A program made the translations under genes and the position numbers. Source: a virus (Duplodnaviria; Caudoviricetes). Taken from it: 30,306 nucleotides of DNA. The notes under the pieces were generated by a model. It was given only the letters and a program-made list of their open reading frames with translations, did no database searches and had not been told where the DNA came from. Shown piece by piece: positions 20,298 to 23,375 of the stretch. The DNA lies in the IMG/VR virus record IMGVR_UViG_3300025296_000083, positions 1-30,306 of that record. One strand, 5' to 3'. Numbering within the stretch: the stretch's first letter is position 1; every line of letters starts with the position of its first letter.

Positions 20298-20495
20298 CTA
20301 CTTAGAAACCAATCCCACTGTATAAAGACCATCGGCTTGTTTTAACATCGTTGGTTTACAGTTCTGTTTGTACAAAGCACCCCTCAAGCCATACGCTGTT
20401 TTATAATCCAGATCAGCAATAGCTTTACCTGGTTCTAAGGCTTCCAGGTATTCAGCGTATTTAGATCGTTTAGGTATTTTATTCAGTATTTTCAT
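20298..20495 (-). CDS. Hypothetical small basic protein (possible DNA-binding)
   Basis: GAGGTGG RBS; IPKRSKY...LEALEPG pattern; last gene of the leftward operon. Confidence 0.6.
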   Translation of the reverse strand: MKILNKIPKRSKYAEYLEALEPGKAIADLDYKTAYGLRGALYKQNCKPTMLKQADGLYTVGLVSK

Positions 20496-21486
20496 AAACC
20501 ACCTCTTTGATATTTAAGGTCTTTTGACGTATGGAATAAGCGTCCTTCGCAGGAACTACTTTTTCCTCTTGGGCCTTGTAATGTCTCATGGGCCAACGCA
20601 CTTGATAACAGACCCTTTCGCCCTGTCTGTCCTTCCACAGTTCCCCGTAAGGATTTTCTTCCAACATAGCCATCACTTTAGCCGTTGCTTCTTTTTTAAT
20701 ATCCGTCCATTTCTTCATGGATTCAGTAGCCAGTTCAATCAATTCAATTTGATCTTCGGCTTCTTCGGGTAACTCAACGGGTTCAGCGTTAACTTCTGCC
20801 TGTTGCCAAATAGTCAAGGCTTCACTTGGATTAACGGGTGGATAGGGGTCTTTATTTTTGACCCTACGATCAAAGTCTTTAACCAGTTTATGAATTTCTT
20901 TTACCATCACTTCGTCCCGATGATAAATGAACATTCTTAAGGTGGTGGACTGATAAAGCACACACAAAACACCCCATTTCGCCCCTTCTATGTCCATTAA
21001 GCCTTGCAGTTGCATAGGCCCACGAAACAGCTTGGGTTCTTCTTCGGGGTAATCCCTGGTTACTTTGCATTCCAGGATAACCTTGTCTGACATTTCAGCT
21101 AGATTAGACCCCATGACATAAATGCCTTTAGCGGGATCGTGTTCTATACGCAGTTTTTCTCCTGCGAAGGCAAAGCCGTCCATTGAGCCTTGAAGCGGTA
21201 TCTCCTGATGCTGTACGGCATAATCCACAGTTAAGTCGGGCATGAGTAGTCCCAAAGTGGACACACAACGCTCCAGAATGACGTTCTCAAATAAATCTCC
21301 CAACTCCATAGCCATCTTCTGTCCAGGGTTAGGATCAAATTCGTCTCTTACATTCTCTCCGTCTTTTGCTCTTATGGCCTTACTCAATAAGTTTGCCCTA
21401 CTCATGTTTTCATAAGGACTTATCCCTGCAATACCAGAAAGGATTGAACAACTGGCCCCATAGTCCCATGTTTTCTTACCTACCAT
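20479..21486 (-). CDS. YqaJ / lambda-exonuclease-family nuclease
   Basis: GAS......GISPY, MELGDLFE, GSMDG, ILECK and QLQGLM motifs. Start moved to ATG 21486 behind GGAGAG. Confidence 0.85.
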   Translation of the reverse strand: MVGKKTWDYGASCSILSGIAGISPYENMSRANLLSKAIRAKDGENVRDEFDPNPGQKMAMELGDLFENVILERCVSTLGLLMPDLTVDYAVQHQEIPLQGSMDGFAFAGEKLRIEHDPAKGIYVMGSNLAEMSDKVILECKVTRDYPEEEPKLFRGPMQLQGLMDIEGAKWGVLCVLYQSTTLRMFIYHRDEVMVKEIHKLVKDFDRRVKNKDPYPPVNPSEALTIWQQAEVNAEPVELPEEAEDQIELIELATESMKKWTDIKKEATAKVMAMLEENPYGELWKDRQGERVCYQVRWPMRHYKAQEEKVVPAKDAYSIRQKTLNIKEVVYENTE

Positions 21487-21664
21487 TTTTCTCTCCATAC
21501 ATTTCTTCGGCTATTTCATCTGCACTTGCACATGCTAGAAATGGCCTGGTTCTTAAATTAGTATAAATAGCGGTGTAGCCATTTTCGTAGCCATAACTAA
21601 ATATACTGCTAACAGGGATTGTTTTTACTTTCTCCCCATAGAGAAAGGGTTTTATATACCTCAC
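21476..21664 (-). CDS. Hypothetical protein
   Basis: 62-aa ORF tightly packed in the leftward operon. Confidence 0.55.
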   Translation of the reverse strand: MRYIKPFLYGEKVKTIPVSSIFSYGYENGYTAIYTNLRTRPFLACASADEIAEEMYGEKNGR

Positions 21665-21666
21665 TG

Positions 21667-21957
21667 TTACAGTGAGTAATAAAGTAAAACTGCAAATCCA
21701 GTTAAGGAACCTGCAATTTCAAGGGTTGATAAATTAGCCTTAAATGATTTAGTAAATCTAGTTAATTTACTTGGCTTAATATATCTAGAATAGTTAATTC
21801 GCCTAGTAATGTAGGCACTTTTAACTTGATATATATTATACGAACCAAATAAGGCTAGCCATAGCGTATCAAACAGGTTTTTGCTACTAGATATGGAATC
21901 TTGGTATCTAGCAAAATCAACCACTTGGGACGCTTTATAGTAAGTACGTTTTTTCAT
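21667..21957 (-). CDS. Hypothetical basic protein with C-terminal hydrophobic anchor
   Basis: AGGAGAG RBS; ends IAGSLTGFAVLLYYSL. Confidence 0.6.
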   Translation of the reverse strand: MKKRTYYKASQVVDFARYQDSISSSKNLFDTLWLALFGSYNIYQVKSAYITRRINYSRYIKPSKLTRFTKSFKANLSTLEIAGSLTGFAVLLYYSL

Positions 21958-22029: not shown

Positions 22030-22308
22030 TTAAACGGCCCCTTTATAATAATTTTCCTCTTTTGTGTGACGATTAGCTTTTGATTTTAATAAATAACTGC
22101 ATTCTGCAATTAGCATACGAGCATGAAGCAACCGAAGATAAAGTGGAACTCTCTGCTTAGAAATTCGTTTAAATTGATCCAAACAGTGTTCCAGGACTTC
22201 TATCGTGTTCGTTATATGCTCTTTTTCTTCTAACGGGATCGTCAAACGTTTTGATCCCATCGAAGCGTGTTGACGCATAAAGAACTCTTGATCTGAATTA
22301 TTCTTCAT
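22030..22308 (-). CDS. Hypothetical protein
   Basis: GGGAG RBS; 92 aa, helical. Confidence 0.65.
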   Translation of the reverse strand: MKNNSDQEFFMRQHASMGSKRLTIPLEEKEHITNTIEVLEHCLDQFKRISKQRVPLYLRLLHARMLIAECSYLLKSKANRHTKEENYYKGAV

Positions 22309-22380: not shown

Positions 22381-23070
22381 TTATTTTCTCCTTTTTAATA
22401 AATTACGAACTGAGGAAGGGTGCCAAATGCCCCCTCGCCTACTGGGGATATTGCGTTCATTCAAACGATGTGCAATTTCAACCAAAGTGGTTGCCCCTTT
22501 TGCTTCTATCTCGGCCACAATCGGCAAGATAGTTTCAGCAAAATCTTTTGCCAACTTTCGATTCTCTTGATAGGCCAATTCCCTAGTCAAATCGAGTGAA
22601 GGCGATCCGAGTAAAACACCCTGCTCTTTTAATTCAGCGTGTTTCTTCTTAACGGATTCTGAAATCTTTTTTCTATTTTGTTCAGATAAACGAACCAACA
22701 ACCCCATTTCAATGTGGTTGTGTCCACCGATATCGCAACCAATAATAGGAACTCCTGATTTTAAGCAAGGAATAATAAAGTTTATGGTCGATGCTAAATG
22801 CCCCATTTTAGGTAAAATTAATTTGGCTTTTTCGGCTTGGCATAAATTTAAAGCATCTGTGAGTTCTGGCCTAACGTGAGTTCTTTTTACAATTTCTTCG
22901 GTATAACGCTTGATAACTCTCCAGGTTCCTTTAGGTTTGCCGTTAAGTGTTAAACCCAATGTATGCCCTACTATGCTGTCAGCTTCCACCATACATATTC
23001 CGTTGGCTAGATACATGACGTGCTTACCATAAGACCGAATGGCCGTTGGTGGTTGATATGATATCTCCAT
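22381..23070 (-). CDS. Serine recombinase homologue with degenerate catalytic domain and intact C-terminal recombinase DNA-binding domain
   Basis: RPELTDALNLC..EKAKL, RKKISE, GVLLGSP and IAHRLNERNIPSRRGGIWHPSSVRNLL match resolvase+recombinase proteins, but YxRVS reads YLANG and KLDRLxR reads KMGHLAS. Confidence 0.8.
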   Translation of the reverse strand: MEISYQPPTAIRSYGKHVMYLANGICMVEADSIVGHTLGLTLNGKPKGTWRVIKRYTEEIVKRTHVRPELTDALNLCQAEKAKLILPKMGHLASTINFIIPCLKSGVPIIGCDIGGHNHIEMGLLVRLSEQNRKKISESVKKKHAELKEQGVLLGSPSLDLTRELAYQENRKLAKDFAETILPIVAEIEAKGATTLVEIAHRLNERNIPSRRGGIWHPSSVRNLLKRRK

Positions 23071-23174
23071 TATTCTCTCCTAAAGAGAGGGTTTGTTTCT
23101 TAATGTCCCTCTTTGTTCTTGTAATTCTAAACACTTTTCTATAATTTACAATAATTATTACTACTATTTGATAA
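23071..23174. promoter_or_regulatory. Divergent early control region
   Basis: Between divergent genes. Minus-strand TTGTAA(23151-23146)-N16-TAGAAT(23129-23124); plus-strand TATAAT at 23140-23145; imperfect inverted repeat TTGTAATT...AATTTACAA; AGAGGG/CCCTCT stem next to the leftward RBS. Confidence 0.6.
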
Positions 23175-23375
23175 ATGGAAGAAAATAAAAACATACCCAA
23201 AAGCAGACAGTTATACGTTGATCCTGCTTTACACACCGAATTAAAGGCTCTGGCACACTTTAGACAACAAGACATAAAGGTCATTGTTTGTAACTTATTG
23301 CGTAACGCTTTAGATAATTTAGAAAGAGACAGCGAGAATGGAGAAATTACCCACCTGGACAATAGCGGTCAGTGA
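23175..23375 (+). CDS. Ribbon-helix-helix (Arc/CopG-like) DNA-binding protein
   Basis: SRQLYVDPALHTELKALA.....IKVIVCNLLRNAL beta-alpha-alpha pattern; first gene of the rightward operon. Confidence 0.65.
   Translation: MEENKNIPKSRQLYVDPALHTELKALAHFRQQDIKVIVCNLLRNALDNLERDSENGEITHLDNSGQ

Follow-up and report, generated by a model that had tools for sequence, protein, structure and literature searches.

Background

Small serine recombinases of about 215-235 amino acids, which join a resolvase domain to an HTH_62 or Recombinase-fragment domain (PF00239 + PF20552/PF07508) and have Tn3/gamma-delta resolvase, Sin and Gin as solved relatives, depend on Ser and Arg residues that are essential for catalysis; resolvases, that of Tn3 being an example, also repress their own promoters. 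The consulted parts of the literature on inactive or degenerate members of this group (PMC4304020; 10.1101/2025.10.07.681051) describe poxvirus F16, a nucleolar protein of a eukaryotic virus that is predicted to be an inactive serine recombinase, and no such family in phages. The gene described here resembles vaccinia F16 in that a virus appears to have kept an inactivated serine recombinase for another role, but it belongs to a bacteriophage clade, carries a prokaryotic DNA-binding domain and has intact orthologues at the same locus.

The other systems closest to this locus are the TLC-type elements that exploit the host Xer recombinases, represented in our comparison by the TLC phage attP with XafT, VGJ with XafV, the gonococcal genetic island, dif-type inoviruses and double jelly-roll phages. 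Their design, according to excerpts of the reports, is a poor XerD arm needing a phage activator that is encoded beside attP (PMC9226527, PMC6744903, PMC12715192, 10.64898/2026.06.12.731946). The parts of the Xer literature consulted, mostly from non-subscription papers, cover inoviruses, TLC, double jelly-roll phages, microviruses and islands and mention no tailed phage at dif, although relevant entries may stand in the DUF3653 tables of PMC6744903.

The window (the whole stretch of DNA analysed) is a linear tailed-phage record of 30,306 bases, estimated to be 94% complete. The features on which the following sections draw are these:

20479..21498, minus strand: RecE/YqaJ-like exonuclease (phrog_434), the fixed anchor on the downstream side of the locus whether the recombinase is dead or intact
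21476..21664, minus strand: 62-aa gene, also kept in relatives without the module
21667..21957, minus strand: 96-codon ORF overlapping the dif-like site, with a CTAG cluster in the window's subclade
21819..21846, minus strand: dif-like site, probable attP (XerC arm, core, degenerate XerD arm)
22030..22308, minus strand: 92-aa helical protein of the 'RLTIP' family, by its position a candidate Xer activation factor
22381..23070, minus strand: dead recombinase P0001, with resolvase-type domain, helix E and C-terminal winged-helix DNA-binding domain (Pfam, AF2/Foldseek, profile alignment, tree, dN/dS)
23075..23080, minus strand: ribosome-binding site GGAGAG, inside a hairpin at 23072-23092
23071..23174, no strand: divergent intergenic region of 104 bp, candidate operator region
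23175..23375, plus strand: divergent 66-aa gene, RHH-like by eye only
L013:8675-9196, L033:5359-5892 and L047:4965-5552: MarR-like winged-helix gene behind the dead recombinase in related loci

We take the left of the window to carry terminase, portal, capsid and tail genes and the right to carry replication genes, labels assigned by reading the ORFs, some of which were also scanned.

A serine recombinase without its catalytic residues

The reading frame at 22381-23070 (minus strand) runs for 229 aa without a break and has the strong ribosome-binding site reported in the first-pass annotation, GGAGAG at 23080-23075, 4 nt ahead of the ATG. Pfam assigns the product to Recombinase (PF07508) at 24 bits, over the cut-off, and to Resolvase at 16.8 bits, under it. 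Its AF2 model (pLDDT 85) gives five Foldseek matches with E<=0.001, all of them serine integrases, followed by Sin and Tn3 resolvase, the family profile also matches serine recombinases in the PDB, and a profile alignment (hhalign) with the intact recombinase P0043 reaches a probability of 99.8 at 34% identity. The serine-recombinase fold first read from sequence motifs thus agrees with the structure model, and all of these comparisons place in P0001 a resolvase-type catalytic fold with helix E, which together with the RP motif is shared with the small serine recombinases carrying HTH_62 or Recombinase-fragment domains. Retention of the scaffold and the C-terminal DNA-binding domain, likewise proposed at the outset, is supported by the PF07508 match and by conserved core columns among the dead relatives; this domain is the same winged helix, with RRGGxWxxSSVRN, as in Tn3/gamma-delta, Sin and Gin.

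The claim that the catalytic motifs had been erased stands for the Ser and Arg residues, E-S-G and D-R-L-x-R, but not for the manner in which the nucleophile was lost. This motif had been described as substituted, whereas the alignment with P0043 shows a deletion of the 8 residues that form the loop with the catalytic Arg and Ser. In place of E-S-G stands E58..V61-K62 and in place of D-R-L-x-R stands G90-H91-L-A-S94, and neither YxRVS nor any other missing motif is restored in another frame of 22381-23070. On its sequence, then, P0001 is a serine recombinase without any catalytic residue.

The hairpin that holds the ribosome-binding site (23072-23092) is terminator-like on the plus strand (region 23072-23099). 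In the window and in L002 only, an AGAGGG further upstream might take up pairing with that CCCTCT strand and so release the ribosome-binding site, and hairpin and AGAGGG together are possibly a translational switch.

The dead clade and its selection

Relatives of P0001 lacking the Ser span identities from 98% to about 30% in sequence searches and loci, and its cluster at 90% has 65 members. In a tree of hand-picked rows, computed from columns of helix E and the DNA-binding domain only, which prevents the lost sites from grouping rows, a branch with support 97/93 separates 20 dead rows from 19 intact and two partly degenerate rows. The R and S of the catalytic loop occur in 19/19 intact rows, while the commonest state in the 20 dead rows is a gap; more generally, the catalytic R, S, Q, E-S-G, D-R, R, E and R are retained in 17-19 of the 19 intact rows and are the consensus at none of these columns in the dead ones. 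The clade therefore differs from active small serine recombinases in lacking the catalytic loop, E-S-G, D-R-L-x-R and also the Glu/Arg of helix E. The structural core and the WxxxxVxN helix are common to both groups, G155, A200, L203, G213, W216, V221 and N223 being retained in 18-20 of 20 dead rows. Against the possibilities that another set of residues has taken over the active site, or that the homologues are all active, stand the 20 dead relatives and the absence of any replacement nucleophile common to their aligned rows.

Several proteins without the Ser (P0073, P0135, P0076, P0158, P0178, P0191 and P0193) fall outside the main dead clade, which suggests from the sequences further independent losses. 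Proteins related to this family of small recombinases, carrying resolvase or invertase annotations, are common in large phages (H2-H70; e.g. Phapecoctavirus, Justusliebigvirus).

Between the window and L011 the dN/dS ratio of the dead gene is 0.117 (39 synonymous and 18 non-synonymous changes; Nei-Gojobori), with 0.121 for the N-terminal domain and 0.081 for the C-terminal part, like the 0.115 of the exonuclease used as control. Ten pairs from the L003-L016 subclade give ratios of 0.03-0.13 and ten from the L025-L038 subclade 0.10-0.23 (pairs inside one subclade not being independent); L045-L046 gives 0.13, and the window against L002 gives 0.26 on 16 changes. The conserved, catalytically dead lineage that the first-pass annotation had anticipated is thus recovered as a single 97/93 clade with dN/dS of about 0.1, and these ratios indicate a gene that marine tailed phages keep under strong purifying selection rather than one in decay. 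All 16 differences between L002 and the window over 22381-23070 lie in the C-terminal half and none in the N-terminal domain, and the reverse pattern separates L015 from L016; the L002/window pattern is suggestive of a recent domain swap by recombination.

Genetic context of the recombinase

The locus consists of a conserved run of genes: recombinase, an optional MarR-like winged-helix gene, a gene of 79-126 aa, a spacer and the RecE/YqaJ-like exonuclease. Intact small serine recombinases of aquatic phages occupy the same locus. A search with intact P0043 gave 44 loci, in 43 of which the recombinase has both motifs (that of L091 is cut), and the same exonuclease follows wherever the contig extends that far. 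In L051 and L061 the intact recombinase also faces a small divergent gene. Since intact orthologues sit at the same locus, the recombinase slot is ancestral and says little about a cI role. The argument that the gene lies where cI normally sits is accordingly weak: intact orthologues head the same operon in related phages, and members of the dead clade vary in whether they have the divergent arrangement, the dead gene being separated from the small divergent gene in L003 and L016 and having no small gene directly upstream in the L025/L033 clade. As in the lambda cI/Cro switch, divergent early operons carry a small putative DNA-binding gene on one side, but the lambda arrangement differs in that no HTH_3 match is present here and the divergence is not conserved across the dead clade. 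The RHH label of the facing 66-aa gene (23175-23375) was given by eye, the gene having no relevant Pfam or PHROG match. A promoter-like match lies at 23151-23124 on the minus strand, and the region 23071-23174 has 7 such matches against 6.0 expected, which is chance level; no operator conserved across clades was found.

The statement that the record has no other integrase or CI is in line with Pfam profile searches of this linear, 94% complete record, which detect neither a PF00589 integrase nor an HTH_3 repressor. PF00589 matches number 0 in G000, G005, G674 and G675 and 1 in G676 (again with the window record 94% complete). Two of these, G674 and G676, have recombinase and exonuclease in common with the window and almost no structural genes, so the early module appears, from gene content, to move between unrelated virion modules.

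Behind the dead gene stands a MarR-like winged-helix gene in every dead subclade with loci other than that of the window; it is translationally coupled to the dead gene in most of them and was hit in 0/44 intact loci. Phage tyrosine integrases adjoin the dead-recombinase operon in L045/L046 (5008-5856) and L044 (3395-4480); L046 has the integrase together with a dif-like site, and L044 has the dead gene, its winged-helix neighbour and the integrase with no dif-like site. In L019, whose exonuclease is 94% identical, the small divergent gene is present and the recombinase, the 92-aa gene and the spacer are absent, as they also are from L021 and L023. Other genes stand in place of the block of recombinase, 92-aa gene and attP (L019:1157-2367, L021:185-565, L023:2876-3256). 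These are possibly non-integrating variants, and the joint absence of gene, 92-aa gene and site could be simple linkage.

A dif-like site and a candidate activator

The site at 21846-21819, 535 bp downstream of the dead gene and 183 bp beyond the 92-aa gene, reads GGTTCGTATAA-TATATA-TCAAGTTAAAA, with XerC arm and core intact and a degenerate XerD arm; we take it to be dif-like from its resemblance to the dif consensus. Its 15-mer occurs once in the window against 0.02 expected, a descriptive figure because the pattern was taken from the site. Among positions 3-17, 13 are invariant across 16 loci, while flanks and XerD arm vary. The dif-like 13-mer lies 107-183 bp past the 92-aa gene in 23 of the 24 dead-recombinase contigs that reach that far (a count that includes many near-copies and leaves out L008, which is the same record as the window), is present in 6/6 loci cut upstream and has 0 other matches in 239 kb of flanks. 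Sites with other cores are found in 11 of 13 intact loci having the 92-aa gene; none of the 26 intact loci without that gene (L066-L091) has a site at that position, one stray match aside.

Strain variation is concentrated in the first bases of the XerD arm (window 21828-21829; L004, L005, L011), the XerC arm and core being fixed. The 96-codon ORF over the site (21667-21957) combines low dS with dN/dS of 0.36-0.68 in most pairs (range 0.18-0.94), which suggests that the conserved thing is DNA rather than protein. In L029, L033 and L041 the frame over the site reads TKQLxLxF just ahead of it, in our view resembling a sliding-clamp motif, and this frame may be a by-product of the conserved DNA. 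A long terminator-like hairpin lies at 21685-21721 (minus strand), about 100 bp beyond the site. Elsewhere, L215/L219/L222:3999-4026 is a fully canonical, intergenic dif site with a TATATA core in an unrelated tailed phage, with a terminase-like gene nearby.

The 92-aa gene (22030-22308, minus strand) is the next gene after the dead recombinase and stands just upstream of the site. Its product models as a helical hairpin, and the family has no DUF3653, Pfam, PHROG, Atlas or PDB match, hence none to an activator of the XafT/DUF3653 type; by its position it is a candidate Xer activator. The window resembles TLC-type elements in its dif-like attP, of which the XerC arm and core are good and the XerD arm is degenerate, and in the small gene right beside attP; in addition, no PF00589 integrase was found in its 94% complete record, and one side of a junction, here that of the relative L048, restores canonical dif. 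It differs from them as a tailed dsDNA phage of 30-36 kb without a DUF3653/XafT match, whose module carries a dead or intact serine recombinase. In its XerD arm position 1 is T and position 5 is G, both features being favoured in XafT-driven integration in the part of the TLC study consulted (PMC9226527). If there are Xer activators unrelated to DUF3653, as the accessible part of PMC6744903 considers for the gonococcal island, the 92-aa family is a candidate that can be tested.

Probable integration at the host dif

The dead-recombinase phage probably integrates at the host dif, and a dif-like attP would explain the absence of an integrase. At least 120 chromosomal loci have a site in which the same XerC arm and core are joined to a canonical XerD arm, many of those listed belonging to SAR86, Halomonadaceae, Methylophaga and Pelagibacteraceae; the window's 17-bp arm and core is exact in one of the loci listed. 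L048, a relative with an intact recombinase, and L049 share 86% identity as far as the final base of the 6-bp core, past which L049 continues with a degenerate arm and phage genes and L048 with a canonical XerD arm. Among 401 genomes of the order of G002, two have the 23-mer of L048, once each, and the L048 tail matches chromosomal DNA from the dif site on (89% over 197 bp, G1082). At least the site of this tail is matched by 78 of 151 relatives, several of which have it about halfway along their first contig; the L048 sequence ahead of the XerC arm has no host match.

The switch from phage to host at the core makes L048 a prophage end at a chromosomal dif, in a phage with an intact recombinase. 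As the crossover lies at the dif core, integration was most likely carried out by the host XerCD, like that of the TLC phage, and not by the phage's own recombinase. This sole junction comes from one contig of one intact-recombinase phage; none was seen for the window's phage in 8 runs, no recombinase-family match at E<=1e-20 was found in 266 SAR86-order genomes, and the dead gene was not found among the genome contigs searched.

What the dead recombinase may do

The reading that we prefer, and hold with about as much confidence as doubt, is that the dead recombinase is a DNA-binding regulator, dimeric in form, and that the lysogeny operon which it heads would insert the phage at dif through the host XerCD. 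The product of 22381-23070 would bind DNA as a dimer and regulate the operon that it heads; the window's phage would integrate at the host dif through XerCD, as L048 seems to have done, with the 92-aa protein activating XerD as XafT does. Catalysis would have become dispensable once Xer did the integration, and selection would have kept the promoter-binding, self-repressing side of resolvases, a self-repression that may time the activator and the early genes. A regulator is favoured because the DNA-binding domain is kept, the gene is the first of its operon, resolvases repress themselves and a winged-helix gene accompanies it. Use of Xer evidently does not force catalytic loss, since intact recombinases persist beside the same module in 11/13 loci.

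The linkage of the gene to the dif-like site in 23/24 contigs would also fit an architectural accessory factor, a possible though rather unlikely role in which the dead resolvase binds near attP and either builds a synapse or topological filter for XerCD or controls excision; by analogy with non-catalytic resolvase subunits at regulatory sites, such a filter might let XerCD recombine a poor XerD arm. Synapsis at the Sin regulatory site does run through the DNA-binding domains and can block Cre-loxP recombination (consulted part of PMC2428073), and seven CTAG-centred words lie no more than 450 bp from the site, compared with a density of 1.6 per kb in the rest of the window, but the CTAG cluster is limited to window-related subclades and no cross-clade motif accompanies it. 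XafT, moreover, needs no accessory DNA according to the part of PMC6744903 consulted, and the 26 intact loci L066-L091 have neither 92-aa gene nor site. L044, which keeps the dead gene beside a tyrosine integrase without the site, argues for a regulatory role over an att-specific one. The dominant-negative partner proposed in the first-pass annotation belongs to an improbable group of protein-interaction roles, in which the dead protein would be a decoy subunit poisoning the intact recombinases of co-infecting phages or host elements, or else would pair with XerD, the 92-aa protein or the winged-helix protein. Purifying selection acts alike on the N-terminal domain and the C-terminal part, intact relatives abound in phages and the winged-helix gene is coupled in most dead subclades; yet the record has no second serine recombinase to partner with, helix E has changed in dead rows at surface residues that do not vary among intact ones, and the window's own subclade lacks the winged-helix gene.

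Still more doubtful is a new catalytic or ligand-sensing function of the old active-site pocket: N23, G24, E29, E58, R63 and H91 are invariant in the window's 8-row subclade, but across the 20-row clade only E58 is conserved, being structural in intact rows too, and H91 occurs in 13/20 dead rows. A decaying pseudogene or assembly artefact, with which the lack of the gene in the close relatives L019, L021 and L023 might agree, is highly improbable given its many cluster members and the full-length frames even of proteins about 30% identical, and is ruled out by dN/dS far below 1 in four subclades.

Implications

The module as a whole is best read as a tailed-phage Xer-hijacking lysogeny module. 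A wider scenario, that widespread tailed aquatic phages lysogenise streamlined hosts (SAR86-type, small Burkholderiales) without an integrase, hijacking XerCD by means of the 92-aa activator family while the dead resolvase gives architectural or directional control, is speculative and in our opinion unlikely as stated. The dead clade provides an example from bacteriophages of a recombinase turned by domestication into a non-enzymatic protein, and intact and dead orthologues can be tested side by side because they occupy one locus; the surroundings of the gene point to integrase-free lysogeny at dif by tailed phages. Predictions of temperate versus lytic lifestyle that are based on integrases would miss such phages or mislabel the serine recombinase as an integrase, so that lysogeny in streamlined aquatic bacteria may be undercounted.
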